From IMG/VR virus record IMGVR_UViG_3300037501_000111, positions 224,001 to 288,000 of that record: a stretch of 64,000 nucleotides of DNA. One strand, given 5' to 3'. The notes beneath the pieces are model-generated. The model ran no database searches, was not told the DNA's origin, and saw only the letters and a list, made by a program, of their open reading frames with translations. Below are positions 32,023 through 49,150 of this stretch, in pieces. This stretch comes from a virus (lineage: Duplodnaviria > Caudoviricetes). Position numbers and translations under genes: made by a program. Every line of letters begins with the position of its first letter. Position 1 is the first letter of the stretch.

Positions 32023-32901
32023 ATGAAAATTTTCAAGATAGTTGTAATTTCTTGTGTTTTATTTTTGACAATTGTGGGGATAGCGAGTGATGAATCGGCA
32101 ATCTCTAAAAATAAGGAGAGCGCCGAAATTACACGCAAATACGAAATACCACAGATTTCGAAAGTAGAGGATCGCGCGTCACCCTCGTGTCCCAGTGATA
32201 TGGTAGAGATTGAAGGTGATTATTGTCCTAATTTACAGACGGAGTGTTTATATAATATAGATTTAGATGGTACTAGACATTATCCTGGAGATATTAATAA
32301 AGCTTGTGGAGAGTATAAAAATCCGAGTAAATGTTTATCTGATAGTTTAGTACACATGCATTTTTGTATTGATCGTTATGAATGGCCAAATAAACAAGGT
32401 GTAGTGCCTCAAGACTGGATGACATATTATGATGCAGAAAAAGCTGTAGCCTCTGTGGGCAAACGACTTTGTACTCATAAAGAATGGACATTAGCAGCAG
32501 AAGGCCCCAACTTACATCCACTACCGTACGGCGATGGATTCCATCGTCAAAGGCTTTGTAATTTTGATAATCATAATTCAGGTATTGATGTTTTTAAATC
32601 TACTAGGCCGAATGACGAAACTTCAGCTAAGTTACGTGCTCTATTAGTGCCGTCTGGCTCTATGTCTGGTTGTGTATCAGATTTTGGTGTGCACGATATG
32701 TCTGGAAATATTGATGAGTGGGTTGTCAATGATGCTAGTCAAGACATGTGTGTTACTAAAACTACTGGTAATTGTAGAACTGGATTAATGGGAGGTCATA
32801 TCTGGCATGTGCGTAATGCAAGTCGTCCGATGACCACGGCTCATGGTGCAGGATTTGGATGGTATGAAACTGGAGCAAGAGCTTGCAAGGATGTCCAATG
32901 A
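32023..32901 (+). CDS. SUMF1/FGE-sulfatase (C-type lectin fold) domain protein with signal peptide
   Basis: CPSDMVEIEGDYCP, FCIDRYEWPN, GKRLCTHKEW, FGVHDMSGNIDEWV, GARACKD; resembles the Polyangia-type subfamily. Confidence 0.85.
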   Translation: MKIFKIVVISCVLFLTIVGIASDESAISKNKESAEITRKYEIPQISKVEDRASPSCPSDMVEIEGDYCPNLQTECLYNIDLDGTRHYPGDINKACGEYKNPSKCLSDSLVHMHFCIDRYEWPNKQGVVPQDWMTYYDAEKAVASVGKRLCTHKEWTLAAEGPNLHPLPYGDGFHRQRLCNFDNHNSGIDVFKSTRPNDETSAKLRALLVPSGSMSGCVSDFGVHDMSGNIDEWVVNDASQDMCVTKTTGNCRTGLMGGHIWHVRNASRPMTTAHGAGFGWYETGARACKDVQ

Positions 32902-33569
32902 ATTTACAAGAATTTATTGATGGGCGCACTCATTGTCCAATATGTAATACTGTGCTGGTTACTCAATTCATTTCTGGGCGCAAACAAAAGACCAGGATAG
33001 AGAATGATAGGTTTGTTGTCATATTTGTTATGAAACCGATGCAAGTAAATCAGCCTGACTATGAAGTTGGATACTCATTCAATCCTAAAGATAATAGTTT
33101 TCATATTGAATTTTATACTGAATGGGATCATAAAACCCACGTTCCGATGCATTTAATTGAGAAGTTTAGGGAGTTTCATACTAATCTTCTTAGGTCTACC
33201 AATGGATCATGCCGATTCATTAGAAAATGTACTTTTTGTAATAGGTACAGTAGGTCATCTACTCATTTCAATTTAGAATTGAAGGCCGGGAAAATAGATA
33301 CATTGTTTTGGGATGGTTTACAAATTGCTTACGAATCATTTGGCCTCTGTATTCCAATAGGTGAAGAATATAAAATTATGCATCTAAGCAATTTTCATGT
33401 TCCTGAACCACAATCTAGGATAGTTTGGTTTCGTTCATTTACACATGACTATGCTAGATTGGACGTTTCTCTTCCACTAAAATATTCAGAGAAGATATTG
33501 CCTATAATTCCATTTATGTCAACAGAAGAAACTACTAGGCGAGTTAGTAATCTATTAACTTTTGCTTAA
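32898..33569 (+). CDS. Zn-ribbon array member 1 (long type), ends ...RRVSNLLTFA
   Basis: CPIC and CTFC knuckles; ATGA coupling to the FGE gene. Confidence 0.8.
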   Translation: MNLQEFIDGRTHCPICNTVLVTQFISGRKQKTRIENDRFVVIFVMKPMQVNQPDYEVGYSFNPKDNSFHIEFYTEWDHKTHVPMHLIEKFREFHTNLLRSTNGSCRFIRKCTFCNRYSRSSTHFNLELKAGKIDTLFWDGLQIAYESFGLCIPIGEEYKIMHLSNFHVPEPQSRIVWFRSFTHDYARLDVSLPLKYSEKILPIIPFMSTEETTRRVSNLLTFA

Positions 33570-33705
33570 AGAAATGCAGACAGTTTTATTTAAGAATTTC
33601 TTCTTTTAGTTTGGAGGATTTGACGTTGGTTAGGTCAATCATTCCATGATTATTTAGTTTTGGAATCTTCGCTTTAATCTCAGCTTCTGCCGGAATCCAT
33701 TCCAT
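33566..33705 (-). pseudogene. Small protein ending ...ILKIKLSAFL, split by one apparent indel
   Basis: MEWIPAEAEIKAKIPKLNNHGMIDLTNVKSSKLKEEILK; adding one base to the T3 run at 33589-33591 joins IKLSAFL-stop. Confidence 0.45.
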
Positions 33706-33855
33706 ACTTACTTATCGATATCGTAATCCTCGATAGCATCATCGTACTGGCTATCCACCAGTTTTTGAATTAAATCAAGATATTCTTGGTCAGTAAGTGA
33801 TTTAAAGCTCATATTCTTTAATATATCATAATGTTAATATTATTGTATTTATCAC

Positions 33856-34512
33856 ATGAACCCAAATAAGCTTTTAAGGTTTGCTAATATGTTCTATTCT
33901 TTAGCTGTGGGAGAGGATTTGCCCTCAGATTCTGAGGATTTAAAGACTATCCTAGCTAATCTAGAAAGATTGGAAACTTACAATGCTCGCAAAAAGTATG
34001 CGGAGCGCAATCTTAAACATTTATCCTCGGGTTCCTCGCGCATCGTTTACTTGACACCATCAAAAACAATCATTAAACTAGCTAAGAATGACAAGGGAAT
34101 TGCTCAAAATAAAGCAGAAGCTAACCCCAAGATGAAGTCCAAATACTTAAACCAAATCCTCAGTTGCGCCAAAAATTTTGCTTGGCTAGAAACACATTAT
34201 CTAGAAAAGATTACTGAAAAGGAGTTCGAGCAGATGACAGGTCTGAAATTCGAACAATTTGGTGATTCTTTAAGGTTTAGTTTGAAAGAGATTTCCGGCA
34301 ATAAAGATGCTAAGAAGCCAGAAGATTTTGACAAAGTATCTGAGTCAGACATATACAAAGAGTTGAAAGATATTGGTCAACGATTCAAGCTTCTTCCAGG
34401 CGATTTGGCCCGCATTTCTTCATGGGGCACTAAAGATGGTCGCCCTGTTTTGATTGATGCCGGATTGACACGAGATATCTTTGATGAATATTACGAAGAT
34501 TCTTCCTCATGA
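33856..34512 (+). CDS. Protein kinase-like fold protein
   Basis: LSSGSSRIVY, IIKLAKNDKGIAQNKAE, GDL...SSWG, PVLIDAG. Confidence 0.7.
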   Translation: MNPNKLLRFANMFYSLAVGEDLPSDSEDLKTILANLERLETYNARKKYAERNLKHLSSGSSRIVYLTPSKTIIKLAKNDKGIAQNKAEANPKMKSKYLNQILSCAKNFAWLETHYLEKITEKEFEQMTGLKFEQFGDSLRFSLKEISGNKDAKKPEDFDKVSESDIYKELKDIGQRFKLLPGDLARISSWGTKDGRPVLIDAGLTRDIFDEYYEDSSS

Positions 34513-35090
34513 AACAATTTTCCTGTCTCGATGAAGCCTTTCGCCATCAGAACACTTGTCCTTTTTGTCAGTTCATAATTACAAGAGGATATACCAGTAT
34601 TACTATGAATGGTGGAGAGACTCTAGTTGAATTTAGTATTGGCAAATCATCTTTAATATTGGACTATAATACTGGCGAACTAAAAGAATTAAAATCAGCT
34701 TCTTTTGAAGAAATACATACTCGTAGCTATCCAGTTTATTCATCTAACGGTTCTGCTTATTCAGCACAAAAATATGGAAAACAGATATTTGGAGTTTATT
34801 GTTCATGTGGAAAATGTGGACAGTACGGATACACTTTACAGGTTCATTTAGATTTGGATCTTGGAAAAATTATATGTATTTTTCTTAACTCAGAGACTTT
34901 ATCTTTCGAAAAAGGTTCGCTACTCCATGAAATTAGAAATATATACTCTACAGGAAAAACTGACTACCGAGTATTTGATAATGATAATGTTACAGAAACA
35001 AAAACTCTTACTTTGCCATTGATTCCAATGGATTTATCTGATCCAGATAAAACATTAGAACGTATAAAGACTCTTGCTCTATTTTCATAG
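34509..35090 (+). CDS. Zn-ribbon array member 2, ends ...ERIKTLALFS
   Basis: CPFC and CGKC knuckles; conserved C-terminus. Confidence 0.8.
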   Translation: MKQFSCLDEAFRHQNTCPFCQFIITRGYTSITMNGGETLVEFSIGKSSLILDYNTGELKELKSASFEEIHTRSYPVYSSNGSAYSAQKYGKQIFGVYCSCGKCGQYGYTLQVHLDLDLGKIICIFLNSETLSFEKGSLLHEIRNIYSTGKTDYRVFDNDNVTETKTLTLPLIPMDLSDPDKTLERIKTLALFS

Positions 35091-35101
35091 AAAGCATTAT
35101 A

Positions 35102-35719
35102 GTGAATAAGTTTGATACTATCGCTGGTTTTACAAAATGTCGTGAGACATGTGTATTTTGTAATACCACATTGCGCATTATATTAACTAATTATGTTGGA
35201 GTTAGTGGACAAGGCATTCCTATTATTAATGCTCCTCTTAAAAATGATAGGTTTGAATTCAAAATCAAACATACAACTCCATCATTTGAGGTTAAGTCAG
35301 ACGTATTCATCTCCACTACAAATAACGCTTTAATATTTGAGAATTTCACCAACGGTGAAATGCCGGCCATTGATGATAATTTAGCCAAACAAGTATTTGA
35401 AGATTATGGGCCACATTTTGAATTGTACTGCCCCAGTAAAAAATGTGGATTAGGGTATTACATAGCTAGCTGGCCAATCAAATTAAAGAAAGTTCATCCT
35501 GTCGTAGGAATGTGGTACATTGAGCCATTTGCCGTGTTTACTGAAAATGTTAAAGTTGGCAATTATGTAGTTGCTAACAATTGGGAATCTAAACTAAGCA
35601 ATATCTATTCTAGAAAGAATATCGACGCTAAGCCTATTGTGGTTCCAATGGTAGATTTTTCTACTATGAATAAAGAGAAACTAATAACTCGAATAAAAAC
35701 TTTGGTGACATTCTCATGA
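35102..35719 (+). CDS. Zn-ribbon array member 3, ends ...[10 protein letters not shown]
   Basis: CVFC and CPSKKC; GTG start. Confidence 0.8.
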
Positions 35720-36810
35720 ATACTATACACATACAGGTATTGCAATCCTGTCAGGTAAGTCTAAAATCTTTAGAAAAGATGACTTCCTTACCTCAAATGC
35801 GTTTAAGATTAGCTGAGATAGATGAGAAATCTAGTGATCCGTCTTTTTGGAATAATCCAAGATCCGCTGCTATCTTAATGAAAGAACGTAAAAAATTGGA
35901 TGACTTCATTACATTTTTCACACGATCAAAAGACGATTTAGAAATATATAATGAATTCGTCAAGGCTGGAGAGCTAAGTGATGCAGATTTTGCACAGCTT
36001 TTCACTCTAAATTCTAAACTACAGTCTACCGTGTTTGAGCAGATGATGAAAGATCCGGTAGATGATACTCCAGCTATCATTTCTATTAATGCTGGTGCGG
36101 GTGGACTGGAGGCAGCTAATTGGGTTACTATGTTACTTCGTATGTATACTCGATATGCAGATAGCCAAGGCTTCAAGGTCGAGATCCTAGATGAAAAGCC
36201 TTCTGAAGAGCATAGTGCTATTTGTACTGATTCTGTTTCTATTAGAGTAGATGGCCCATATGCATTTGGTTTCTTTAAATCAGAATCTGGAGTTCATCGT
36301 CTCATCCGCAACTCACCATTCAATGCCGCTGATGCTAGACAAACTTCATTTGCTGGTGTTCAGGTCACACCTGATATTGAAGATACTATTGATATTAAAA
36401 TAGAGGAAAAAGATATAGAGATTACTACTATGCGTAATTCTGGTCCAGGTGGACAAAATGTTAACAAAGTAGAATCTGCTGTCCGTCTCAAACATCTTCC
36501 AACTGGTATAGTTATTAATTCTCGTTCAGAGCGTAGTCAATTAGATAATCGTAGATTTGCCATGAAGATGTTGAAAGCAAAACTTTACGAATTAGAAATG
36601 AAAAAGAAGCAAGCCGAACAAGATAAACGTGTGGATGCTACGGCTGATGTATCCTTCGGTAATCAAATCAGAACTTATACTTTAATGCCCTATAAATTAG
36701 TTAAGGATGAACGTACCGGATTTCAAGTTAGAGACGCCGATGCCGTTCTTGATGGTGACATTCAAGGATTTATGATTGCTTATCTTCAGGAATATGATAA
36801 AATCGCATAA
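35716..36810 (+). CDS. prfB: Peptide chain release factor 2
   Basis: [20 protein letters not shown] (SPF tripeptide = RF2), GPGGQNVNK (GGQ), [15 protein letters not shown]; single open frame. Confidence 0.95.
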
Positions 36811-36815
36811 TAAGT

Positions 36816-37397
36816 ATGAGGAAGTTTACCGTTAAGGACTTCATAGCATACAATAATCCATGTTTTAGCTGTGGTAATCCAATCAATTTTCGTATTGGTT
36901 ACACTCTGATTGGATCGGGTGAGGCAGGGTATTTGCGCCCGGCAATAATGCCTAACCATACTGAAGTTGATTTAATCATTAAATATTCTGATATGGAAGC
37001 GCTAAGACTATGTATTTATCATAAAACAAATAAAATACTAACCAATAGTATTCAAGGCTTGACAAACTACCTTAGCAGCCGTAAGTTGTATTTGACCTCT
37101 ACCTGCGATAAATGCTATACTAAAATAGAAAGCCAATTTCTAGAGTTCAATCTAGAACGCAGATATATCAATGCGGTAGGGCTTAGTAGTGAAAGGTTGA
37201 TGGTTCGTGATAGTGAGAATTTGTATCAGATTACATCTTCTTTTATAGATGAGACCTCATTACTAGTAGTTGATAAGATAGATAAAGTAAAGCCATTATC
37301 TCCATTTCAATTAAAATTACCTCTTTTACCTAAGTATCGATTAAAAGATAAAGACAATTTTATTCGTAAGATTAAAACCTATATGACATTTTCATGA
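36816..37397 (+). CDS. Zn-ribbon array member 4, ends ...RKIKTYMTFS
   Basis: CFSC and CDKC knuckles. Confidence 0.8.
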   Translation: MRKFTVKDFIAYNNPCFSCGNPINFRIGYTLIGSGEAGYLRPAIMPNHTEVDLIIKYSDMEALRLCIYHKTNKILTNSIQGLTNYLSSRKLYLTSTCDKCYTKIESQFLEFNLERRYINAVGLSSERLMVRDSENLYQITSSFIDETSLLVVDKIDKVKPLSPFQLKLPLLPKYRLKDKDNFIRKIKTYMTFS

Positions 37398-37960
37398 ATT
37401 TACAAGATATTTTGAATTATAGAAGTGCTTGCATTCACTGTGGGCGCCCCTTAACTATGCGTGTAGCTCGTTATCCCAAATTGTTAATTGAACATAATAA
37501 TAGTGGATTGGTAATCAAATCACCAAATCAGGGTGGAGTCTTTTTGAACTTCAATTTTGATGGTGCTTATGAACGTAGTAAAAGAAACTACGAAATACAT
37601 AAAAATCCAGTGTATATCAAGAAGTATTGCAAGTATCATCCTTTGTTCAATAAATACAAAGGGGTTACGTTAGATGGCATTAAAGATACTACTTGTCACT
37701 ACGCTTTTAGTGTGCTAGGCAACAAGCTAAAATCATATGTAGCAAATATGGAATACGAAGGTATTGCTTGGTGTAATGATGATGAATTTTGGCATATGAA
37801 TTCATTCTATTCTAAGAATGAAAGTCATATTTATCATGGCCTTTATTCTCAAACGATAGGTCAAGTACTACACTTAAAACTTCCTATTATTAATCTTAGT
37901 GGGACAAAAACTGAAGAACAATATCTGAATAAGATGAAACTGTATGCCCTCTTCTCATAA
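37394..37960 (+). CDS. Zn-ribbon array member 5, ends ...NKMKLYALFS
   Basis: CIHC knuckle; N-terminus MNLQD resembles member 1. Confidence 0.8.
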   Translation: MNLQDILNYRSACIHCGRPLTMRVARYPKLLIEHNNSGLVIKSPNQGGVFLNFNFDGAYERSKRNYEIHKNPVYIKKYCKYHPLFNKYKGVTLDGIKDTTCHYAFSVLGNKLKSYVANMEYEGIAWCNDDEFWHMNSFYSKNESHIYHGLYSQTIGQVLHLKLPIINLSGTKTEEQYLNKMKLYALFS

Positions 37961-38374
37961 GAATGCTTTGAGTTTATCTAGCCTTTTACAATGTAAGATA
38001 ATATCTACTATGTGTTGAATTTTAAGATTACCGAATGAGTTGAATTGAATCCAATCTTGGTTTCTAAACCTTGGATCTCTTTTAAGATCAATGCGCTTAG
38101 CCTTAGGATCAGTACTATCAAAAATAGTTATTTCAAAATCTTTGAAATCTTTAAGCCTACGTGAACCTTCCAAGTCATACGGTAGTTGAATTTTAATAGT
38201 GTACATACCAACTTTAATACTGTTTATATAAAGAATAACTTCATTCTCTTCGGTAGCTTCTAAACTGGCCAAATGGCAATTATCTAACGATTTTTTGATT
38301 TTGTTTCTAGAACTCTTACCATAACTAAAATCAAGTACGGTGCGTGGCTCTTCATGTGAACGAATGGCTGTCAT
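37955..38374 (-). CDS. Hypothetical protein ending ...RLDKLKAFL
   Basis: 139 aa; stop overlaps the convergent stop of member 5. Confidence 0.7.
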   Translation of the reverse strand: MTAIRSHEEPRTVLDFSYGKSSRNKIKKSLDNCHLASLEATEENEVILYINSIKVGMYTIKIQLPYDLEGSRRLKDFKDFEITIFDSTDPKAKRIDLKRDPRFRNQDWIQFNSFGNLKIQHIVDIILHCKRLDKLKAFL

Positions 38375-38421
38375 ATCTTCCTAATAGTATGCCACATAAC
38401 TACCATATTTATTGAGTCGAC

Positions 38422-38751
38422 ATGGAAAAATACAACTGCTTAGTATGCAATAAAGAGATGGAGATTCATAACAAGATAGCCTTTGTAGACTATATATGTA
38501 ACCGTAGTGATGACCATCATTTCTCTTGGCGTATTAAAAATCAATCTTTGATAAAGCTGCGCATTCGGTTTCAGGATGACAAACATCGGTTATGTCTCAA
38601 AGTTCACTATGATGAGCAATATTCTCAAGTTTGGTCTAAAGCAAAAACTCCTGATATAGATAGAATTCGTATCAATCAGATTATTGTCCCCAATTTTGAA
38701 GACATTGAAAAGCTAAAGAACAAGATTAGAACTCTGTTGGTGTTTGGATGA
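38422..38751 (+). CDS. Zn-ribbon array member 6 (short type), ends ...NKIRTLLVFG
   Basis: CLVC, then C...H. Confidence 0.8.
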   Translation: MEKYNCLVCNKEMEIHNKIAFVDYICNRSDDHHFSWRIKNQSLIKLRIRFQDDKHRLCLKVHYDEQYSQVWSKAKTPDIDRIRINQIIVPNFEDIEKLKNKIRTLLVFG

Positions 38752-39092
38752 AAGCACCAATTAATTGCCCTGTATGTGGTGACCCAATGCTTAATACTTT
38801 TCCCGCTGCTGAGGATATGCATGATAGTGGAAAAGTAACCAAAACATGTGCACTAAGGCTCAGCCATAAGATTACTATCATTGCAGAGGGCGAAGAAGTA
38901 TCTCAAATGAGCATTGATCTTGGTAATGGTTTAGAGGCTATATTTTTGTTCCTCCTGAATAAGGTTTGGGTTCAACCAACAAGGGCCAATAAAAATAAGA
39001 TAGATTATACTATTCTTCCATTTTTTGAACCAGATTTATCTGATTACAAAAAGCTAGTCAATAAAGTAAAAACCTATTTGGTATTCTCATGA
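38748..39092 (+). CDS. Zn-ribbon array member 7, ends ...NKVKTYLVFS
   Basis: CPVC, then C...H; ATGA coupling. Confidence 0.8.
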   Translation: MKAPINCPVCGDPMLNTFPAAEDMHDSGKVTKTCALRLSHKITIIAEGEEVSQMSIDLGNGLEAIFLFLLNKVWVQPTRANKNKIDYTILPFFEPDLSDYKKLVNKVKTYLVFS

Positions 39093-39440
39093 CACACCAA
39101 TGTGGTTTTTTGCAATAAAGAAATGGAAGTAATTAATCATACAAATAGAGAATTATTTGATGTCTATGTGTGCGAAAAATGTACCGACTCATATATCTAT
39201 ACTCGGTACAGACACGTCTGTTACAATGGTAGTCATACAGTTTTAGCTACAACAATTCGTATTGATGAATATTATGTGATTCTTAATTATTGTTTTCATT
39301 TATCGTCTCAAAGAGATAACTACACTCAAATTCATATAGGTATTACTCAGATATTCGATCTTAATTATATTCTACGGTTGCCGCTGCACGACCCAGCTCA
39401 AGCTAAACGAAAGTTACAGATTTACACAACTTTCTCATAA
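39089..39440 (+). pseudogene. Zn-ribbon array member 8, ends ...RKLQIYTTFS; one extra base near the start
   Basis: Coupled ATG at 39089 gives MTHQCGF; removing one T from the T6 run at 39106-39111 restores CGFC and the frame of ORF 39102..39440. Confidence 0.65.
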
Positions 39441-39449
39441 AGGAGCAAT

Positions 39450-39836
39450 ATGGGTATAGTTATATACTTTGATATGGACGACGTTCTTAATTGCCCCATT
39501 TGTGGCACCCGCATGCGTACCGTGCATCACACGAATAAACTATTGCATCCAATCGACCAAACAGCCGATTATGCTGAGCGTATTTGTTCAGGCCATAATC
39601 ACGTTATAGCTATCTGGACCAATAAAGCCACTAAAAAAGTTGACTTTATGAAATTATCACTCAACTCTAAGTATTCTCGCTTTTTGGAAATAGACTGGAT
39701 TAATCAAAAATGTAAGATTACTTGTGCTAGTGGCGGCGAGTACGAACATATAGACATACCAAAAATGATTGAGCCAGATTTCCCTGACCTAGTTAAATTG
39801 AAAGAAAGAGTAAATCTCTACATTGTGTTTTCATGA
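39450..39836 (+). CDS. Zn-ribbon array member 9, ends ...ERVNLYIVFS
   Basis: CPIC, then C..H; AGGAG RBS. Confidence 0.8.
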   Translation: MGIVIYFDMDDVLNCPICGTRMRTVHHTNKLLHPIDQTADYAERICSGHNHVIAIWTNKATKKVDFMKLSLNSKYSRFLEIDWINQKCKITCASGGEYEHIDIPKMIEPDFPDLVKLKERVNLYIVFS

Positions 39837-40174
39837 AATGTTTATTTTGTAACCAAAAGATGTGGCAAGAAGAAGACGGACCGGATAGCTTATTCTTTGA
39901 ATACAAATGTTTTTCCATTAAGTGTATGGTCAATAACGATTTTCCAAGATATATTTGTGGCACCGATAAAGAAGGCGGTCTTTGTTGGCAAGAGTATGCT
40001 TCGGAAGGTTTTTACGTTAAGGTATCAAGTGAAGGCACTCGCATCTACCGGCTTATCTCCTGTATGTTGAATCAAGATGTGAAACTTCCCGAATCATTAT
40101 GGCTCAATCCTACAAATTTCAAAGAAACTCTTGACAAGGTGCGGGGGCTGCATTACATTTTGTGGAATGGATAA
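39833..40174 (+). CDS. Zn-ribbon array member 10 (C-terminal tag diverged or frameshifted)
   Basis: CLFC and CFSIKC; LNPTNFKETLDKVR is retained but the protein ends GLHYILWNG. Confidence 0.7.
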   Translation: MKCLFCNQKMWQEEDGPDSLFFEYKCFSIKCMVNNDFPRYICGTDKEGGLCWQEYASEGFYVKVSSEGTRIYRLISCMLNQDVKLPESLWLNPTNFKETLDKVRGLHYILWNG

Positions 40175-40180
40175 CTCACT

Positions 40181-40582
40181 ATGGTGCGAGAACCGCCTAC
40201 CTGCCCTGTTTGTGGACTGATTTTAAGAGCGTCGGGCGTTAACCCAGACATGTACTATTGTATGAAGCGCAAGGTATGGGAACCAGACCTTGGTATCTAT
40301 CTTGACATTGTAGACTCGACTATTTATGTTGACCCAGAGGGGAAACAGATATTGCGAGTAATAGAAATACCACCATTTAGCTTTACTATTGTGGATGATG
40401 ATCAAAAGCAAGAGACTGTTATTCGTAAAGTGATAGCTCCTGAACGATCATTAAGAGATAGAAATAAAGCACGCACACTTGAGATAAAGATTATTTTTAA
40501 CTATTCCTGCTGTGGTCAAAATGCTCTGGAATGATAAAAAGCCGTTGCCGAGCGAGTAAAACTTTACCTACTATTTTCATAA
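40181..40582 (+). pseudogene. Zn-ribbon array member 11, ends ...ERVKLYLLFS; two compensating indels
   Basis: An extra T in 40494-40498 and a missing A in 40536-40540. Correcting both gives ...IILTIPAVVKMLWNDKKAVAERVKLYLLFS-stop. Confidence 0.7.
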
Positions 40583-40598
40583 AGGTGACCCGAACAAA

Positions 40599-40919
40599 AT
40601 GCGATTCCAAAATCATGAGTGCCCACTGTGCCATAAGGTTATGCGTTTTAAATCCGTTGCTGGTGTTTCAACGTTCTACTGCCCCGATACAGAGGGTGGC
40701 AATAATACTTCTCACTACGAGGTGGAGTCAGATGGTAAACAAACCATCCAACACATCTATGCTTTCCCTTATGCTATAGATAATTTTTCTAATGCAACTC
40801 GTTCTAGAGTTTATCATTGGAAAGGTAATCGCTGGCATTTTATAGCGGAAATGCCATATATCAATCCACAATCCCTCGATATACTACGACAATATCTACA
40901 CCTAGTTGCCTCTCAATGA
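40599..40919 (+). CDS. Zn-ribbon array member 12 (tag diverged, ends YLHLVASQ)
   Basis: CPLC, then CP...H. Confidence 0.75.
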   Translation: MRFQNHECPLCHKVMRFKSVAGVSTFYCPDTEGGNNTSHYEVESDGKQTIQHIYAFPYAIDNFSNATRSRVYHWKGNRWHFIAEMPYINPQSLDILRQYLHLVASQ

Positions 40920-41275
40920 CTTTAATCTGTAAATTCTGTCAGAAAGAAACAACCTACGTACCTTTAAGGGTGGCGGATAGGCGCACTTTCGAGGTGCACT
41001 ATTGTTTTAGTTGTAATGCAGAATATGTAGATTATGGCTCTGATGATGGAAAAGCTACCCATTTATATACTGAGATTGATAAGAAGATGTATAGATGGTC
41101 TGTCACAGAACATAAAGCAAAACTTTCGGGGTATGTATGGTATGTTGGCGAACCAGGGGTACCAGGCGTTGTGCCTAATAAAAGACTACGCCTACTCAAA
41201 TCGTTTGAAACTCCACCGACCATAGTCCCAAATAATGTAGAACAAAAGATACGATTTATATTATTATTCCTGTGA
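40916..41275 (+). CDS. Zn-ribbon array member 13, ends ...QKIRFILLFL
   Basis: CKFC and CFSC. Confidence 0.8.
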   Translation: MTLICKFCQKETTYVPLRVADRRTFEVHYCFSCNAEYVDYGSDDGKATHLYTEIDKKMYRWSVTEHKAKLSGYVWYVGEPGVPGVVPNKRLRLLKSFETPPTIVPNNVEQKIRFILLFL

Positions 41276-41796
41276 GACAGATCAATGTACTTGAGTATAG
41301 CTGCCCGTACTGTAATGCGGATTTGGTTGTTCACAGAGTTGATTTTTCTTATGAATCGGTAAATGGCGAATCCATCAAAACTACTTTTCAATGTGTAGGT
41401 TGCTTAGAATTTTACTACACATTAGAGAATACCCACGTTGCTAATCCAGATAATACGCCAGAGTATAAGTGCCCATACTGCCAAAACCAATGCTCTTATT
41501 TATCATTACAAGATGATTGGTCTGATTATTGGAAATGCGTACCATGTAAAACATCGTTTACGCAAACTTATAATCCAAATCATAGTGTAATTGAAATTGT
41601 CAATATGTATACTGTTATTAATAATAAAATATACGTTTTAAGACAGTTTCTTTACGAAAATCGTTCTCGTGTTGATTTGTTACCGGCCGATGAAGAAGAT
41701 ACTATTGTTATTGCACATGAATTTAACTTCTTATTTCCAAATGTGACGCCCACCAATATCCAGCAAAAACTACTTACCTATCTTGTATTCTCATGA
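41272..41796 (+). CDS. Zn-ribbon array member 14 (double ribbon), ends ...QKLLTYLVFS
   Basis: CPYC/CVGC plus CPYC/CVPC. Confidence 0.8.
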   Translation: MRQINVLEYSCPYCNADLVVHRVDFSYESVNGESIKTTFQCVGCLEFYYTLENTHVANPDNTPEYKCPYCQNQCSYLSLQDDWSDYWKCVPCKTSFTQTYNPNHSVIEIVNMYTVINNKIYVLRQFLYENRSRVDLLPADEEDTIVIAHEFNFLFPNVTPTNIQQKLLTYLVFS

Positions 41797-42119
41797 GATG
41801 CCCATATTGCAAATATCCACTAAAATTCTCTCATCATGAAAATGACAAGGAAGTTGAAGTATATGATTGCCTTAACTGCCCTATGTTAATCTTTTTATCT
41901 TTCCTAGACAAAGATGCTGAACCTATTAAGACTACATTTATGGTTGAGCGCAATGGAAGAACTTACTTGTGGACTAATGATAAGATTAAAGGATATTCTT
42001 ATATTTCAGAATTGACATTAAATCCTGGCAACCATTTGTTGCTTAAGTTGCCTAAATTGGTGGAAGTAACACCGGAAACTGTAGCGCAAAAGCTGTCATT
42101 CTACATGGTTTTTATATGA
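41793..42119 (+). CDS. Zn-ribbon array member 15, ends ...QKLSFYMVFI
   Basis: CPYC and CLNC. Confidence 0.8.
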   Translation: MRCPYCKYPLKFSHHENDKEVEVYDCLNCPMLIFLSFLDKDAEPIKTTFMVERNGRTYLWTNDKIKGYSYISELTLNPGNHLLLKLPKLVEVTPETVAQKLSFYMVFI

Positions 42120-42290
42120 GGCCATTACACAACTAACCATACTGCGGATGTACTCTTAAATACAGTCAGTTCTACGTGGACTCGTTTGATAATCCAGAGT
42201 TACAGTACATTAACTTTAGTACGGCCGATTTTAATGTATACGTTTACTTTGAAAACGGTTACTATAAGGATGTATTTACTATCCTCATGA
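42116..42290 (+). pseudogene. Degenerate Zn-ribbon array member 16
   Basis: Coupled ATG gives MRPLHN-stop-PYCGC, with TAA at the first knuckle Cys position; truncated; out-of-frame tail MYLLSS-TGA overlaps the next ATG. Confidence 0.6.
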
Positions 42291-42627
42291 AGTGCCCCAT
42301 CTGCCAAGAACATAAACTAGTTACACAATCCCTAGAAGATTGTTTTGGTCGGAAACCAGATATCTTTTGTCCTAAAGTTATTAGACTACCAGAAGGAAAG
42401 TTAGTCAATCATTATCGAGAATATTCGGTAGTAGGTGATAAAGTTAGAATTTTCGTCTGGCCCTATCGAATCATTACTTGGAAAGGCGAATCACAGGTAT
42501 CGGTGGATACCAAACGCTTAAAAAGTAATAAGCATTTCTTTAAGACCATCATGAAAGCCCCGCTCTCCATGTAGATACAGAAGATAAGTTAAGGTATAGA
42601 ATTAAGCTACTATTATTACTGTCATGA
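42287..42627 (+). pseudogene. Zn-ribbon array member 17, ends ...YRIKLLLLLS; one missing base
   Basis: MKCPIC start; adding one C to the run at 42558-42561 gives KAPALHVDTEDKLRYRIKLLLLLS-TGA coupled to the next ATG. Confidence 0.65.
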
Positions 42628-42998
42628 ATTGTAGATTTTGCCAGGCCCCAATGTTACCTATCCAGGATATCCCGCCGGATAGCGATGCCCGTGTCGATTA
42701 TGGGGTTTTATGGGAATGCCATAATTGCCCAGCTACCGTAAAACAATATGATAGAGATGAAGACTGGTTCTCCATCTTGACCCTGTATAATGGACATTGG
42801 TATGAAATCATGCAAATGTATACAGCCGCTGATTCTAAAGATCCTCCACTATTATCTATTTACAAAATTACTCTTTATGAGGACGAGTACGAGCAGCCCA
42901 ATATCAAATCTGTCCTAGCGTTGGAATTAAATATTAATGGTCAAATCACTCCACAAAATATTAATTCTAAATTATCTACTATACTAACTTTTTCATGA
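42624..42998 (+). CDS. Zn-ribbon array member 18, ends ...SKLSTILTFS
   Basis: CRFC and CHNC. Confidence 0.8.
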   Translation: MNCRFCQAPMLPIQDIPPDSDARVDYGVLWECHNCPATVKQYDRDEDWFSILTLYNGHWYEIMQMYTAADSKDPPLLSIYKITLYEDEYEQPNIKSVLALELNINGQITPQNINSKLSTILTFS

Positions 42999-43208: not shown

Positions 43209-43883
43209 TTAATGACTTGCAATATTTCCACCATCCACATGAGCTGGCAAATCATCGGTGCAATAGTTTAATCCTTCCAACGGTATGTCAAAGAACTTGG
43301 CCACCTTAACCTGCGTGGCATAATCAATGCACTGGAATCTAGCCCTGGTATAATGCGGATACATCAATCGCTGTCCAACGTGTGGACTGCCCATCAAATG
43401 ACCAATCTCATGCATGGTAATTCCAAACACATCATCGTTACCAATGCGGTCGCGGACTAAATACATGTGATGTCCACCAAGCTGCTCGGTAAACCCAATG
43501 GTCCAATAACCTTTCTCATCCTGAGGCGGTATCATCTTGTTGGTGCTATCCACCTTCATAAATAACCATCCGCCTTTGTTGACCTGTTCCACTATCTTTG
43601 AAACTTCCATATCAAAGTGAGTATCCACTACCTTCAAGATAACATACCCATTCATAGCGAAGTTCCAAGCATCGATTGCTTTGTCAATCTCTACCTTGTC
43701 AGCTTCTCCAAAGTTCTTGTCAATCCAAATCGGTATCTCTCGAACTGGTGTTCCTGTATACCTAGCTTTATGACTGTAAGAATAGACTCCAAGCTTTGGC
43801 TCAGTTATTATCTTCCAACTGGATGCGCAACCAATTGCCAGCGCAGCTAAAGCTGCTAGCAATACTATAATCAACACCTTCAT
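43209..43883 (-). CDS. Matrixin/M10-like zinc metalloprotease, predicted lipoprotein
   Basis: Lipobox LAIGC; AIDAWN; MHEIGHLMGSPH; Met-turn LMYP. Confidence 0.85.
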   Translation of the reverse strand: MKVLIIVLLAALAALAIGCASSWKIITEPKLGVYSYSHKARYTGTPVREIPIWIDKNFGEADKVEIDKAIDAWNFAMNGYVILKVVDTHFDMEVSKIVEQVNKGGWLFMKVDSTNKMIPPQDEKGYWTIGFTEQLGGHHMYLVRDRIGNDDVFGITMHEIGHLMGSPHVGQRLMYPHYTRARFQCIDYATQVKVAKFFDIPLEGLNYCTDDLPAHVDGGNIASH

Positions 43884-43909
43884 AATGAACCCCGCCGGCA
43901 AGTATTCGT

Positions 43910-44836
43910 TTACTTGAAATGCTCTTCCGAGTTGTGCTTGTCCAAAAAACTTCTAATGGTGTCTAAATGAACGTGAATGCCAACCTCTGGTGCCCTAGCT
44001 AAACGAATGGTAATTCCTACTAGCTCTCCATAATCATTGAAACATCCACCACCAGAATTGCCATAGAAAATTGGTATCTGTACCTGCATGTATGGCCCCT
44101 TTGCATCATCACGACCAGCACTTAAACGCTTGTAATGATCTGCATCACGATAAGCAGCAACTTGTCCAGACATGTAAGTCCAGTACAAACCAGTCTGATG
44201 CCCAACTACATTAACATGCTCGCCTAATTCAGGCGTTTCCTTAGCTAGTCTAGCAATAGTATGAGGCGGCTGTAGTTGCCCCTGTACCTCAAGCAATGCT
44301 AAGTCATGAGGCTCATCCCAAGCTACTACCTTGCTCAAATGCCATCCACTTGGCTCAGCAGCTACTCCCATAACTTCTTTCTCAACAATATAATGAATCT
44401 TCAATCCCTTCTTCTCTACCTTGTCGGCTTCTTGTAATCCACCACCCCCAAATAATCTCTGTAACAATTCCTGTAGAGTCTTTGGCTTTTCCTTATCGCC
44501 TTCCTTGCGCTTGTCCAGTCTGTCTTGTTGCCATTCAAGCTCTCCATCAACACAATGATTAGCGGTCAAGATATGCTTGTCATCAACCCAAACTCCCGTG
44601 CAGTACGGACGGTATCCAGTCGTCACTGTGGTCTCTTTATCATCACGATATCCCATCAATGCTACCGTTGAACCACCTTCCATTGCAATCAGTTCAGAAT
44701 TACTTAGTTTGATGCGTAATTCCTGCTTTACTATGGGCGGAACTACCCCAAAACTCTTCGATAAGCATCCAGCACATCCTGCGCCAAGTAATGTTCCCAA
44801 AACAACCAATAGAAGAAGATTCAAATAACGTTTCAT
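43910..44836 (-). CDS. Trypsin-like serine protease, predicted lipoprotein
   Basis: Signal ...LLGAGC; LTANHC, HDLALL, GNSGGG catalytic triad. Confidence 0.9.
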   Translation of the reverse strand: MKRYLNLLLLVVLGTLLGAGCAGCLSKSFGVVPPIVKQELRIKLSNSELIAMEGGSTVALMGYRDDKETTVTTGYRPYCTGVWVDDKHILTANHCVDGELEWQQDRLDKRKEGDKEKPKTLQELLQRLFGGGGLQEADKVEKKGLKIHYIVEKEVMGVAAEPSGWHLSKVVAWDEPHDLALLEVQGQLQPPHTIARLAKETPELGEHVNVVGHQTGLYWTYMSGQVAAYRDADHYKRLSAGRDDAKGPYMQVQIPIFYGNSGGGCFNDYGELVGITIRLARAPEVGIHVHLDTIRSFLDKHNSEEHFK

Positions 44837-45039
44837 GCAGAAACCCCCGCAATTTAACTTGATTACTGACATAAGCTCCGACTCTTTCGGCCCTAGTGAA
44901 ACCAAGATTTAAGGATACGAAAATATACACCAATTCTACATAGGAATTTATCAATTGTATTAACGAATTGCGTCATATAGTAAATGGTATACTCAAATCA
45001 ATCCGCTTGTTTACCCCTTAATAGGATAGCTGTATGGTA

Positions 45040-45894: not shown

Positions 45895-45983
45895 AAAATC
45901 AATGAATATGCCAAGGGCGCAGCGCACTTACCCTGTTGGCTCCCATTCACGGGCTGCACTTACCCAGGATTGGAGGTTGAACG

Positions 45984-46448
45984 ATGAACAAGAGCCAGGT
46001 TTCCGCCATCCTTGCCCGAGATCCGTACGCCGTGACCAAGGCGATCGTGCTTCTCTTCTCCTACCAGACGGTGGGGGAGCGTCGCACATCGACCACGGTG
46101 GAGGACAACGGGGTCGGTTTCAACGCAGTGCACGCCAAGAACGCCTCTTACTGGGCGAGGTGGGTGCTCGGGGTCGGACTGAACACCCCAGCCCACATCG
46201 TGGACGACAAGGTGCGACACTACCTGACCGGCGACAACTGCCGACAGTACCGCACTCTCACCGGCTCCTACCTGGTGGAGGCACGTCGGGTGGCCGCCCA
46301 CTACTGGCGACAACTCGCCGCAGCGGCCAAGGCTAAGGCTAAGGCAAAGCTCGTGCCAATCGTCGAGCACCGCGGCACCGACATGTCGCACATGCTGCGA
46401 CAGTTCGACCGCTTCCAGGTCCACCCCGGCATCACGCAGCATGTCTGA
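45984..46448 (+). CDS. Conserved phage hypothetical protein
   Basis: GGAGG RBS; strong G/C third-position bias; AIxxLxxxQTxxE...T...NGVGF motif. Confidence 0.75.
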   Translation: MNKSQVSAILARDPYAVTKAIVLLFSYQTVGERRTSTTVEDNGVGFNAVHAKNASYWARWVLGVGLNTPAHIVDDKVRHYLTGDNCRQYRTLTGSYLVEARRVAAHYWRQLAAAAKAKAKAKLVPIVEHRGTDMSHMLRQFDRFQVHPGITQHV

Positions 46449-46460
46449 CATGTAGGTTGA

Positions 46461-46495
46461 AAGGGGAGGGTGGCGCTAGCCACCCTCCCCTTCTT
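46461..46495 (+). terminator. Terminator-like hairpin
   Basis: Perfect 14 bp stem AAGGGGAGGGTGGC-GCTA-GCCACCCTCCCCTT. Confidence 0.7.
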
Positions 46496-46505
46496 ACGTT
46501 GTGGG

Positions 46506-46521
46506 CGGCATAGCCATTGCA
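46506..46521 (+). promoter_or_regulatory. Sigma54-like promoter motif
   Basis: CGGCATAGCCATTGCA followed by GGGTGCA. Confidence 0.6.
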
Positions 46522-46633
46522 GGGTGCAAAGCATGTGCCAGGCAAGTTTGCCCCACGTAAACCGCCGCCTCCCATTCACTGCCAGTCCAGACCGAGAAGC
46601 GTCCACACCAACCCGAACGCAGGAGCCACCGCC

Positions 46634-47260
46634 ATGGGTCTCGCTGACATCATCGCGCTCGTTTCGTCTGCTCACGTCGACCCCACCATCGCGCCCGAGA
46701 TTGACGACTCGCCCGAGATCGTCGAGACGGTTATCGGCCGCAATCTCCCCAAGCCTGTGCGAGGCAAGAAGCAGGTCGCTTCCATTCACGACGGCCCCAA
46801 GGTGTTCGGCGTGACCCTGCCCGAACGCAACACGCTGGACGCCAAGAGCTTCCTTCTCGCTGTTCGCAACGCGGGCAAGCGGCCCAACGCCAAGGGAGCC
46901 ATGGTCTTCGACAAGGCCCACGAGCGCAACGATCTCATCTGTGCTATCCACGCTTACGTTGGGTACGATACCCGACGTGATTTCGGCCCGCAGGACACCG
47001 AGGCGCGGGCCAAGGCCCAGCGCGAGCTGAGGGACGGTGTCACCCCTGGTCCCACCAGGGAGGAGAAGCGGAGTGCAGAGCGTAGCCTGTCGGGCTACGT
47101 GGCTGGCATGCCGCGCCCGGCTCAGAAGCTCCTCGCCAATCTCAGGGCTAGGGAGCAAGCGGCAGCCGAGGCGATGATCGACGCCAAGACCCCGGAGGAG
47201 AAGGTAACATACAAGCACCTCCTCGACACCATTCGTAAGGCCATCGACGAGTTGGTCTGA
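46634..47260 (+). CDS. Hypothetical early protein (208 aa)
   Basis: AGGAG RBS before MGLADII; GC3-rich. Confidence 0.75.
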   Translation: MGLADIIALVSSAHVDPTIAPEIDDSPEIVETVIGRNLPKPVRGKKQVASIHDGPKVFGVTLPERNTLDAKSFLLAVRNAGKRPNAKGAMVFDKAHERNDLICAIHAYVGYDTRRDFGPQDTEARAKAQRELRDGVTPGPTREEKRSAERSLSGYVAGMPRPAQKLLANLRAREQAAAEAMIDAKTPEEKVTYKHLLDTIRKAIDELV

Positions 47261-47280
47261 CCCACATAAGGCTCACATCC

Positions 47281-47329
47281 CGAAGGGCTCACACCTGGCG
47301 GGGTGTGGGCCTTTCGCTTTTTCTTTTTT
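47281..47329 (+). terminator. Rho-independent terminator
   Basis: CGAAGGGCTCACACC...GGTGTGGGCCTTTCG followed by a T tract. Confidence 0.8.
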
Positions 47330-47350
47330 CGCGATGTAGGGAAAAGTGGT

Positions 47351-47366
47351 TGGCATAGCCATTGCA
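47351..47366 (+). promoter_or_regulatory. Sigma54-like promoter motif
   Basis: TGGCATAGCCATTGCA followed by GGGTGCA. Confidence 0.65.
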
Positions 47367-47582
47367 GGGTGCATATGCGCGAGAAGAGGCGCCTTCCATT
47401 CACTGGCAATCGGAGTCGAAAGGTGCAGCAACGGACGGCAGCAAGGCAAGCAAGCCAGCGCACTAGGCGCAAGTCGTTCGCTACTGTATGCGACCACACA
47501 CGGCAGCAAGGTTCATACCAGGGGCTTGACCCCAAGTCGTGAATAGGCGCCTCCCATTCACCGCCAGACAGCGAGGTTGAGC

Positions 47583-47753
47583 ATGACAGCGAACGAAGCG
47601 TACGAACGAGGGAAAGCGGACGCCAGGCGTGAGAAGGCGCCCCTCTTCCGCTGCACTCGCCATGGGTACGAGCCCACGGTCGATGATGACATGGCGGATA
47701 ACTGGACGCAAGAAGATCGTTTCCACTACGTCCAGGGTTACGACCACGGCTAG
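47583..47753 (+). CDS. Small protein (56 aa)
   Basis: Manual translation MTANEAYERGKADARREKAP...FHYVQGYDHG; GAGG RBS; follows the motif at 47551. Confidence 0.6.
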   Translation: MTANEAYERGKADARREKAPLFRCTRHGYEPTVDDDMADNWTQEDRFHYVQGYDHG

Positions 47754-47934
47754 CGCCGGTCCTACGAACAACGGTTGAGCCAAGCGGCTCCCATTCACGA
47801 CGAAATCGAGTGCGGAAGTTGCAATCGCCCCTCACGGCAGCAGGCACCAACGGTGCGGCACCATCGAGTGCAAGTCGAGAGGGGCGGTTGCCTCCCATTC
47901 ACAACGAACGTCACCACAACGAAGGAGCATCATC

Positions 47935-48120
47935 ATGAAAAACGTCGATCTCTCGGTCTCTGGCGACACCCTCGTCATCAAGGTCAGCCTCAAGGCGCCC
48001 CGCACGGCCAGCGCCTCTGGCAAGTCGGATGTCATCGCCTCCACGGAGGGGAACGTCAGCATCCCCGGCTTCCCCAACATCAAGCTCGGTCTCAATTGCT
48101 ACACCCCTAAGGGCAAGTAA
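47935..48120 (+). CDS. Small conserved protein, paralogue of 52837..53013
   Basis: AAGGAG RBS; SxSGKSxxIASTEGN...IKLGLN. Confidence 0.8.
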   Translation: MKNVDLSVSGDTLVIKVSLKAPRTASASGKSDVIASTEGNVSIPGFPNIKLGLNCYTPKGK

Positions 48121-48357
48121 CGCCCTTCGGCCAGCTAGTCGCCCCGTGCAATCCCGAGTCTTCTGTCAGGCTCAAAAGGGACACGGGGCGACTAGCCTAG
48201 TTTCTGTTTCTCCAGCGTCACCAAAAGCGCACGGGGCTACGTGCGGCCTTCCAAGGTTTGAGTGACATAAGGGTTCGACTCCCTATGAATCTGTAGCATC
48301 CCGGCCCGTAGCCTTCCATTCACGGAGGCACGGGCTTGAGGTGTTGGAGGTACAACG

Positions 48358-48618
48358 ATGCGCAAGCCTTTCGACATGGCCAACAAGTACGAGTACGGCT
48401 CATACCATGACGACGAACCCACCATCAAAACGCAGGTGCCTGCGTTTCTCCCCAAGGTCATCGTGGATGATGATGCGGAAGACGACGAGCCCACGCTGCC
48501 TAGCTTGCGCAATCCCTTCCACGAAGAGAAGCGCTATCCTGGGATCGGTCTGCTGATCGTCCTGTTCAGCGGAGCACTCTTTTGGGGTGCGGTCTTGTGG
48601 TTCTTCGTCTGGCACTGA
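48358..48618 (+). CDS. Small protein with a C-terminal TM helix
   Basis: GGAGG RBS; duplicated DDEPT(I/L) motif. Confidence 0.65.
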   Translation: MRKPFDMANKYEYGSYHDDEPTIKTQVPAFLPKVIVDDDAEDDEPTLPSLRNPFHEEKRYPGIGLLIVLFSGALFWGAVLWFFVWH

Positions 48619-48807
48619 TGTGCCAAGGCGAGGTGTAGGTAAGAAGGCCACTGGTCAAGAGACCCTTGGCAAGATGCTCGTGTCCCGACATGGTGACATG
48701 TGCAAGCGCAGCGCTAATGCGCTGGAAAAGGTGAGTGCCGTCAAGAGCGCGACTCACAGGCTCCCATTCACTGATCATCGATAGCGAAAGACAACGGAGG
48801 TACGAAC

Positions 48808-49107
48808 ATGGCATATGGCATCTGGGACGTGAGCGGGAAGGTTCTGATTCCCGGCGCTCGTAAAAGCGCGAGCTTCGGTCCTGTCCGCATCGTGGACAAG
48901 GATCGGGCGACTGCCAGCCGGCATCTGGCCGCGCTGCTGAACGAGAAGTTCCGGCGGGACCTGAAAGGGGACCACCGCTTCTCGGCGGGGTACGCCCTGA
49001 TGAACCTGAAGTGGGAAGAGGTGTGCAAGAAGTCCGCCGCTCCCACGACCGCAACGGCGGTCCAGGTGTCGGAGCAGGTGCGTGCTCAGGAAGCAGCGGC
49101 CGAGTGA
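48808..49107 (+). CDS. Hypothetical early protein
   Basis: GGAGG RBS; follows the motif at 48761. Confidence 0.75.
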   Translation: MAYGIWDVSGKVLIPGARKSASFGPVRIVDKDRATASRHLAALLNEKFRRDLKGDHRFSAGYALMNLKWEEVCKKSAAPTTATAVQVSEQVRAQEAAAE

Positions 49108-49150
49108 AGCTCCCTGTTTTCCCATTCATCGCAACACGGAGGACAATGGC

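Follow-up and report, generated by a model that had tools for sequence, protein, structure and literature searches.

Small zinc-ribbon paralogues of a freshwater megaphage array most likely share a predicted fold closed by a conserved C-terminal helix

We analyzed a 64-kb stretch of phage DNA, referred to here as the window (positions 224,001 to 288,000 of IMG/VR record IMGVR_UViG_3300037501_000111), in which 17 co-oriented plus-strand genes of one family and one remnant form an array at 32898-42998. According to an open reading frame (ORF) listing of 31.5-44.5 kb and a multiple alignment, these genes encode proteins of 106-223 amino acids (aa) that have in common two Cys pairs, the first of them an N-terminal CxxC, then a beta-rich middle, and the C-terminal sequence [ED]-K-[ILV]-K-[TL]-[LY]-h-h-F-S-stop. 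Most likely, judging from the predicted structures, this shared tail is the closing helix of a common fold and not a detachable address label. As to function, we lean, if only slightly, toward the view that the array encodes a set of target-specific binders, in which a constant zinc-ribbon/helix scaffold would carry a variable sheet surface.

AlphaFold2 models were built with orthologue alignments, using member 7 for the short form and member 4 for the long form (members are numbered 1 to 17 along the plus strand). The short-form model (predicted local distance difference test (pLDDT) 86.7; predicted template modelling score (pTM) 0.79) shows the strands of a zinc ribbon, another six strands and a single helix (residues 97-113 of 114), with the last two pLDDT blocks at 92 and 82. 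The long-form model (pLDDT 93.2; pTM 0.87) has its C-terminal helix at residues 179-192 of 193. Both models place the tail at the end of an uninterrupted helix that belongs to a compact domain. In BFVD, about 20 proteins from a single 'uncultured Caudovirales phage' have the same fold (template modelling (TM) score up to 0.85), which confirms, at the level of predicted structures, that the diverged paralogues have a common fold. Because the short-form profile aligns to residues 89-193 of the long form, with cysteines at C16/C19/C97/C100, the long forms appear to be the same domain carrying a beta/alpha insert of ~75 residues between the zinc knuckles; the knuckles are 15-25 residues apart in short forms and ~75-80 residues apart in long forms.

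These models revise the picture given in an earlier note on this DNA, which had described a single CxxC knuckle and a short exposed C-terminal peptide. The N-terminal Cys site had been placed correctly but belongs to a full ribbon of two knuckles, and the supposed peptide corresponds to the final 14-17 residues of a helix that is predicted with confidence and lies in a compact domain. That note had suggested looking for a common fold by structure prediction, and confident models and a common fold were indeed obtained. It had also considered that the tail might prove to be a buried element of a known fold: a buried structural role is probable, but the fold matches nothing solved. No significant match was returned for the short model by Foldseek against the PDB and AFDB clusters, by VIA-align (48,161 PDB representatives) or by an ESM Atlas search by shape, nor for the long model by Foldseek against the PDB, VIA-align or AFDB. 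The best values in these searches (E 0.02-0.15; Z 5.5) were weak resemblances to polo-box, p32, BRICHOS and the phi92 spike, and the best score of an ESM Atlas search by features with member 15 (0.80) was at chance level. Homodimer prediction for member 7 (score 0.03) gave no verdict and is not used as evidence.

On a helical wheel, with positions counted back from the C-terminus, the tail helix has a hydrophobic stripe at -12, -8, -5, -4 and -1. The most conserved stripe, N-13, K-9, T/L-6 and F-2, lies ~100 degrees away from it, and E/D-10, K-7 and h-3 form the opposite face. We propose that each protein is one domain made of a Cys4 zinc ribbon, a 6-7 stranded antiparallel sheet and a C-terminal amphipathic helix, the last starting at T-P-x-N and ending in ...[ED]-K-[ILV]-K-[TL]-[LY]-h-h-F-S-COOH. 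The -12, -8, -5, -4, -1 face would pack on the sheet, and the N-13, K-9, T-6, F-2 face would pack along the zinc ribbon. Mean-field direct-coupling analysis (DCA) of 300 aligned members (effective number, Meff, 276) recovered the zinc ligand pairs C5-C28 and C8-C28 as its top couplings, a positive control. Eighteen of the 45 top couplings join columns 1-31 (the knuckle region) with columns 97-112 (the helix); for example, F7 is coupled with N100, P98 and K104; C31 with P98, K104 and N100; and F111 with C5, C8 and C28. In addition, I69-L105 links a sheet position with the hydrophobic stripe. Taken with the high model confidence, these couplings support a helix wedged between the sheet and the zinc ribbon, its faces presumably buried.

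The tail is confined to the family. A strict tail pattern was matched by 13 of the 631 stop-to-stop frames of at least 40 aa in the window, all of them in the array and on the plus strand. Our genome-wide statements rest on a complete relative of 480,838 bp (IMG/VR 3300028558_000791, hereafter G001; CheckV completeness 100%), where the pattern occurs in 28 of 4775 frames. Of these frames, 26 encode proteins of the CxxC family, 22 from the array plus 4 dispersed copies (51.9, 76.8, 118 and 127 kb), and the other two are short frames without an F-x ending; thus, no non-family protein among the frames of this genome carries the motif. The tail was also considered as a modular targeting tag, but it does not behave as a portable one, since 26 of 26 tail-bearing ORFs of this relative belong to the CxxC family. 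The constant exposed tag proposed earlier likewise found no support, as the tail never occurs on another fold in this genome and covaries with the knuckles and a sheet position.

Within the family, the ends of the proteins are the best conserved. The mean information content of a column is 0.71 bits for the body and 2.18 for the helix, reaching 4.4 at F(-2) and 3.2 at K(-9); the CxxC...CxxC columns carry 4-6 bits, and their Cys residues are invariant in orthologue alignments. Among 305 unique members, F is penultimate in 293 and K or R stands at -9 in 296. The best 150 of 1405 profile matches show the same features (F(-2) in 146, S/L(-1) in 138, K/R(-9) in 149), with T-P-x-N preceding the helix in most of them. 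The consensus end is K-[IL]-K-T-[LY]-L-[LTV]-F-S, without Q, and the last residue is Ser in 74% of members. The N-terminal length before the first CxxC ranges from 2 to 54 residues. The diverged ending of member 10, ...LHYILWNG, is itself conserved in relatives, and its G001 orthologue has a canonical tail.

Several observations weigh against a purely structural role for the helix. Where columns are nearly invariant, coupling may stem from joint loss in decaying copies and does not have to mean contact. All faces of the helix are conserved among orthologues, the polar residues E/D(-10), K(-7) and K(-9) among them, and only one position varies freely; this conservation exceeds what one-sided packing needs. 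The long forms possess an internal helix (79-88) that lacks the motif. Moreover, the protein ends exactly one residue past F in 96% of members, and in natural two-domain fusions the hydrophobic end is present only in the C-terminal copy. The fixed C-terminal register beside an N-terminus of variable length, the fusions, the internal helix without the motif and the all-face conservation fit an added function that needs a free C-terminus.

Such a function could be docking. The helix might belong to the fold and, at the same time, offer an exposed face and a free ...h-h-F-S terminus to be read by one shared partner, a possibility that we regard as real but clearly the less probable one. In its favor are the conservation of every helix face in orthologues, the invariant distance of K/R(-9) (97%) and F(-2) (96% of 305 members) to the C-terminus, the restriction of the motif to the true C-terminus of fusions, and the presence of two tandem ClpP homologues, a phage-side proteolytic machine, in the relative genome. 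Candidates for a partner serving ~25 bodies are a protease/unfoldase of phage or host origin, a polymerase accessory and some other hub, and we hold them with the same reserve. Against docking, the motif is never found on a non-family protein in the complete genome, unlike F-box/PRANC or ssrA tags, and both the model confidence, which extends to the last residues, and the covariation with the zinc ribbon point to a packed helix. In the 480,838-bp relative, no Clp-type AAA_2 unfoldase was found above the cut-off and no beta clamp was matched (PF00712); a search with the gp45 model was silent everywhere and hence uninformative. Finally, one orthologue group in which the terminus is replaced by ...HYILWNG is still conserved.

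A bolder version of the docking idea would make the helix a universal plug by which ~25 bodies per genome are docked onto one phage or host machine, giving an adaptor library without a described bacteriophage counterpart; we consider this a shade more doubtful still. Equally speculative are the machines that could be involved, ClpP1/ClpP2 with a host unfoldase or a capsid-packaging route of injected early proteins, and we would put no more trust in the corresponding use of the library, which would be multiplexed host takeover or anti-defence.

Another possibility is that the non-polar C-terminus acts as a degron, sending the proteins to a tail-specific or AAA+ protease for timed degradation. 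The phage ClpP genes of the relative, and the trypsin-like and metallo-peptidase genes that flank the array, would be in keeping with it. Yet the F-S end differs from ssrA-type ...LAA, the flanking peptidases are on the other strand and have signal- or lipoprotein-like N-termini, the tail is predicted to be helical and packed, and conservation reaches 16 residues upstream to include the helix N-cap. We consider a degron very unlikely.

Returning to the closing helix of a scaffold, the body of the proteins can be examined for how it evolves. Within orthologue groups, both body and tail are under purifying selection. When the window was compared with three relatives, the proportion of synonymous differences (pS) was saturated at 0.62-0.82 (0.76-0.82 in the body and 0.62-0.78 in the tail), and that of nonsynonymous differences (pN) was 0.17-0.25 in the body and 0.10-0.19 in the tail. 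Orthologues align at 46-93% identity, with 60-73% in the body; the mean column identity is 65% for the orthologues of member 7 (n=35), and those of member 4 (n=142) are 45-100% identical. Paralogue identity is 11% in the body and 40% over the last 16 residues. Because orthologues remain 60-73% identical while synonymous sites are saturated, the members appear, from these comparisons, to be old paralogues, each kept for its own function, and not a rapidly diversifying cassette. The bodies had earlier been called hypervariable, which is at odds with purifying selection in each orthologue group, and the middle had been called unalignable, which is true between paralogues but not between orthologues. 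The proposed architecture of a variable body and a constant terminus is nevertheless real, and the spread of isoelectric points fits many specificities.

These results would be accounted for if the array were the product of an ancient expansion, specific to a clade of ~0.5 Mb freshwater megaphages, of a multigene family whose proteins are small and cytoplasmic. With the zinc ribbon and helix as the constant scaffold, only the ends of the proteins would be expected to align between paralogues; the sheet surface and loops would differ between paralogues but be kept within each orthologue group. Each copy may then be a specific binder of a different host or phage macromolecule, and the set may serve host takeover or regulation, its copy number shifting by loss and gain.

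Instead of many different targets, the proteins might be regulators directed at DNA or RNA polymerase, or nucleic-acid binders. This is a rival on function that is compatible with the scaffold, and we think it unlikely. Zinc ribbons often bind nucleic acids or RNA polymerase, as has been proposed for phage G (PMC7824862), and the family profile has a weak match to phage G gp166 (E 3.8e-5 within that genome). A PDB sequence-profile search returned only generic zinc-ribbon matches (RPA12, eL43) and a marginal one to DpnI (E 0.02). These weak matches may be taken in favor of such a role, as may the six members with an isoelectric point (pI) of at least 8.9 or a net charge of about +5 to +9. However, five members are clearly acidic or neutral, there is no helix-turn-helix or other DNA-reading element, and the profile matches are confined to the generic zinc ribbon, the catalytic D...ExK of DpnI not being conserved. 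Across paralogues, the pI ranges from 4.4 to 9.3 and the net charge from -9 to +9; because of this wide spread, different targets are likelier than one uniform nucleic-acid role.

The genes are probably made together as one operon, translationally coupled via ATGA overlaps. An ATGA or GTGA start-stop overlap is present at about half of the window junctions, and an ATGA overlap at 96 of 126 family genes across loci. The overlap would fix the last codon as NNA, mostly TCA (Ser): 74 of 93 genes use TCA for their terminal Ser, compared to 17% TCA among Ser codons elsewhere in the same genes, since TC-ATG-A supplies the start of the next gene. This raises the question of whether the tail is conserved as DNA, serving downstream re-initiation or as a homology tract for unequal recombination. 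The frequent overlap and the TCA-biased terminal codon could be read in this way. However, the bias is confined to the last codon, the other tail codons vary synonymously, and synonymous sites are saturated in the tail too (pS 0.62-0.78). Members without the overlap keep Ser(-1) through non-TCA codons, and a dispersed copy that is not coupled, with a 113-nucleotide gap to the next gene, keeps the full motif. The idea is already largely refuted, and we give it next to no weight. Since the uncoupled copy keeps the motif and Ser is kept with other codons, the codon data indicate that the constraint on the tail acts on the protein, and the overlap would merely pick the codon. A scan of 29.5-45.5 kb for sigma-70 promoters and terminators gave 72 hits versus 58 +/- 7 in shuffles, barely above background and thus uninformative.

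The array had been described as ~18 co-oriented genes, including a remnant, with two members of diverged tails, and this description holds: 17 genes and a remnant were found, and the two intact genes with diverged tails start at 39833 and 40599. Twelve genes are intact with a canonical tail (32898, 34509, 35102, 36816, 37394, 38422, 38748, 39450, 40916, 41272, 41793 and 42624). Three non-family genes break up the array (33856-34512, the RF2 gene at 35716-36810 and the minus-strand gene at 37955-38374). The features in order are:

32898-33569, plus strand: member 1, long form, 223 aa, tail ...NLLTFA; orthologues 60-65% identical; ATGA overlap with the upstream FGE-sulfatase-like gene.
33856-34512, plus strand: embedded non-family gene, 218 aa, phrog_4301, function unknown; ATGA-coupled to member 2; position kept in all relatives.
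34509-35090, plus strand: member 2, long form, 193 aa, tail ...IKTLALFS.
35102-35719, plus strand: member 3, long form, 205 aa, tail ...IKTLVTFS.
35716-36810, plus strand: RF2 homologue, 364 aa (Pfam PCRF 4e-43, RF-1 7e-38); ATGA-coupled to member 3; same position in every relative.
36816-37397, plus strand: member 4, long form, 193 aa, tail ...IKTYMTFS; zinc ligands C16, C19, C97, C100; 142 orthologues.
37394-37960, plus strand: member 5, long form, 188 aa, tail ...MKLYALFS.
37955-38374, minus strand: non-family gene, 139 aa, without a Pfam or PHROG match; kept inside the array in relatives.
38422-38751, plus strand: member 6, 109 aa, tail ...IRTLLVFG.
38748-39092, plus strand: member 7, 114 aa, reference for the short-form model, tail ...VKTYLVFS; 35 orthologues.
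39089-39440, plus strand: member 8, with a T-run insertion; frame restarts at GTG 39102 without the first Cys; tail ...LQIYTTFS.
39450-39836, plus strand: member 9, 128 aa, tail ...VNLYIVFS.
39833-40174, plus strand: member 10, 113 aa, extended diverged tail ...LHYILWNG.
40181-40582, plus strand: member 11, with two compensating frameshifts, tail ...VKLYLLFS.
40599-40919, plus strand: member 12, 106 aa, diverged tail ...LHLVASQ; no counterpart in L001, L003 or G001.
40916-41275, plus strand: member 13, 119 aa, tail ...IRFILLFL; GTGA overlap with the next gene.
41272-41796, plus strand: member 14, 174 aa, with an extra N-terminal zinc ribbon, tail ...LLTYLVFS; profile matches at residues 9-44 and 65-174.
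41793-42119, plus strand: member 15, 108 aa, tail ...LSFYMVFI.
42137-42286, plus strand: remnant of a further member (~150 nucleotides), N-terminal part only; matches L001 13057-13464.
42287-42627, plus strand: member 16, with one frameshift near the 3' end; tail ...IKLLLLLS in the neighboring frame, ending at 42627.
42624-42998, plus strand: member 17, 124 aa, last gene of the array, tail ...LSTILTFS.

The minus-strand 139-aa protein ends in a tail-like ...DKLKAFL, but was rejected as a family member (hhalign probability of 0.3% against the family profile). The 217-aa and 218-aa neighbor proteins were rejected as paralogues as well, and no PDB relative was found for the latter (33856-34512).

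The broken members retain readable tails, and the positions at which the earlier note had seen the motif survive out of frame (40582, 42290 and 42627) are correct. In member 8, a 1-nucleotide insertion in a T run just after the original ATGA start removes the first Cys, and the canonical tail is kept (39102-39440). The tail of member 11 can be read at 40538-40579 despite the two compensating frameshifts, and an intact 133-aa orthologue in L001 is 85% identical; member 16 has an intact 113-aa orthologue at L001 13790-14131. In all, frameshifts affect 3 of the 17 members, in one case within a T homopolymer, and another copy is present as a remnant only. In the rest of the window, the very long ORFs are intact. 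The damage seems to be genuine decay of genes in the phage carrying the window and not a general assembly error. Since it has 17 copies compared to 22-29 per genome in relatives, the window array would be a reduced, partly decayed version of theirs.

No model of the family above threshold exists in Pfam-A, PHROGs v4 or NCBIfam 20, consistent with the initial impression that no named family is involved. Pfam gave sub-threshold generic zinc-finger matches only, NCBIfam nothing meaningful, and PHROGs weak zinc-ribbon matches only (best E 1.3e-4, for member 14, which has the extra ribbon). A tblastn search with member 7 found no match in 50,697 GenBank phage records, and no description of the family was found in the literature. 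A profile built from 35 short members, however, matched 1405 clusters (clustered at 50% identity) with E<=1e-3, 88 of them with E<=1e-10, among 1.84 billion representative proteins.

Every family context examined is the same syntenic locus of freshwater megaphages of ~480-510 kb, and the array phage itself is a freshwater megaphage of about half a megabase. A window family protein is also encoded on a 340 kb contig, and orthologues lie on contigs of 477-511 kb. In a sequencing-run search, the window stretch was present in freshwater metagenome DNA runs; no RNA run was among the runs listed. The locus is syntenic in every relative examined, the order being an FGE-sulfatase-like gene, long members, RF2, long members, the minus-strand gene, the run of short members and then, on the opposite strand, trypsin-like and C39 peptidases.

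In the window, the gene before the array (32023-32901) encodes an FGE-sulfatase-like protein whose N-terminus is signal-like. At the other end of the array, 43209-44905 on the minus strand encodes two peptidases with N-terminal hydrophobic segments, one a lipoprotein-like metallopeptidase of the matrixin type (230 aa) and the other trypsin-like (331 aa). The RF2 homologue is full length in a single frame, and its SPF and GGQ motifs are legible in the translation. TGA is the stop codon read by RF2, and it is the stop in 108 of 126 family genes. Further genes in the neighborhood encode GMP reductase/IMPDH-family and SET-domain proteins besides RF2, and proteins with E1_FCCH and laminin-G-like domains (1257 and 1555 aa). 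Between 1073 and 18898, proteins of 585, 1257 and 1555 aa each have an E1_FCCH-like domain, with laminin-G-like proteins alongside; these giant proteins and their laminin-G-like neighbors are probably encoded by tail-fibre or structural genes. At ~46 kb, the GC content rises from 0.35-0.42 to 0.47-0.62; from there on (~45900-64000), long ORFs vanish under code 11, and small genes have been described as punctuated by a strand-polarized CTCCCATTCAC motif.

In G001, the two tandem ClpP homologues (1e-45 each) lie at 182337-183532 (L024 2337-3532); the genes after them encode a DUF192 protein and an FtsK/SpoIIIE-family ATPase. In the stretch 126024-128811 (L012 25-2811), one dispersed member sits between a tyrosyl-tRNA-synthetase-like gene and the gene for a 376-aa P-loop/AAA-like protein, for which there is no Pfam match; another, of the long form, comes after an R2K-clade ATP-grasp gene (L014).

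Huge phages carry hundreds of genes without a family, and the family described here represents ~25 genes per genome and 1405 metagenome clusters. Defining it provides an annotation model (zinc ribbon, sheet and a T-P-x-N...K-x-K-x-x-h-h-F-S helix), a marker for its megaphage clade and a tractable system for studying how large phages diversify small binders. In pairing a constant scaffold with a variable face, the family would be similar to binder scaffolds found in nature, and it could be put to use in engineering. Should the helix turn out to be a shared docking surface, this would be the first phage adaptor library of its type.

Several known systems can be compared with the array. C-terminal peptide signals include the ssrA/ClpX tag (LAA), the beta-clamp motif QL[SD]LF and PDZ ligands. 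Like these, the array tail is a short hydrophobic motif in a fixed C-terminal register; unlike them, it has neither LAA nor Q-L-x-L-F, its last residue is Ser and not hydrophobic in 74% of members, and it is predicted to be helical and packed instead of an extended free peptide. The tail was rejected as a bacterial beta-clamp-binding motif, given a consensus without Q and the absence of a PF00712 match in the 480,838-bp relative.

The ankyrin-repeat/F-box (PRANC) host-range proteins of poxviruses, an analogy drawn in the earlier note, combine a variable target-binding part with a constant C-terminal element, the PRANC, which is an independent domain with Skp1/cullin as partner. Both they and the array proteins form multigene families with variable and constant parts, and copy number varies among related viruses in both cases. 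However, PRANC is a module, whereas the constant element of the array family is a helix inside a single small domain and, in the 480,838-bp relative, never occurs on another fold.

The N-terminal zinc-ribbon PD-(D/E)XK domain of DpnI (PDB 4esj) matches weakly and below significance (E 0.02) from the first knuckle to the 'LP..TP' before the helix. A DpnI-like PD-(D/E)XK nuclease was nevertheless rejected: columns 32-35 after knuckle 2 carry only 0.5-1.4 bits, and D and E-x-K are not conserved. DpnI (4esj) was absent from the structure searches with both models.

Among described systems, a zinc-ribbon expansion of ~35 copies in Bacillus phage G comes nearest; its members were proposed to act as transcription factors or to bind DNA (Iyer, Anantharaman, Krishnan, Burroughs, Aravind 2021, PMC7824862). 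Both phages have a genome of ~0.5 Mb with tens of ~100-aa paralogues bearing an N-terminal Cys4 zinc ribbon, and gp166 of phage G has the same order of zinc ribbon, strands and C-terminal helix. When the family profile was run against phage G (JN638751), gp166 was the best match, covering columns 4-93, and all others had E > 1e-3; its Foldseek TM is 0.34 (BFVD), so that homology to phage G is marginal at most. The phage G proteins lack the C-terminal motif, and the array family differs further in its single translationally coupled array, its embedded RF2 gene and its freshwater setting. The family is a new, large and clade-restricted case of the small zinc-ribbon paralogue expansions known from jumbo phages, distinguished by a helix motif in fixed C-terminal register, a tightly coupled single array and an embedded RF2 gene.

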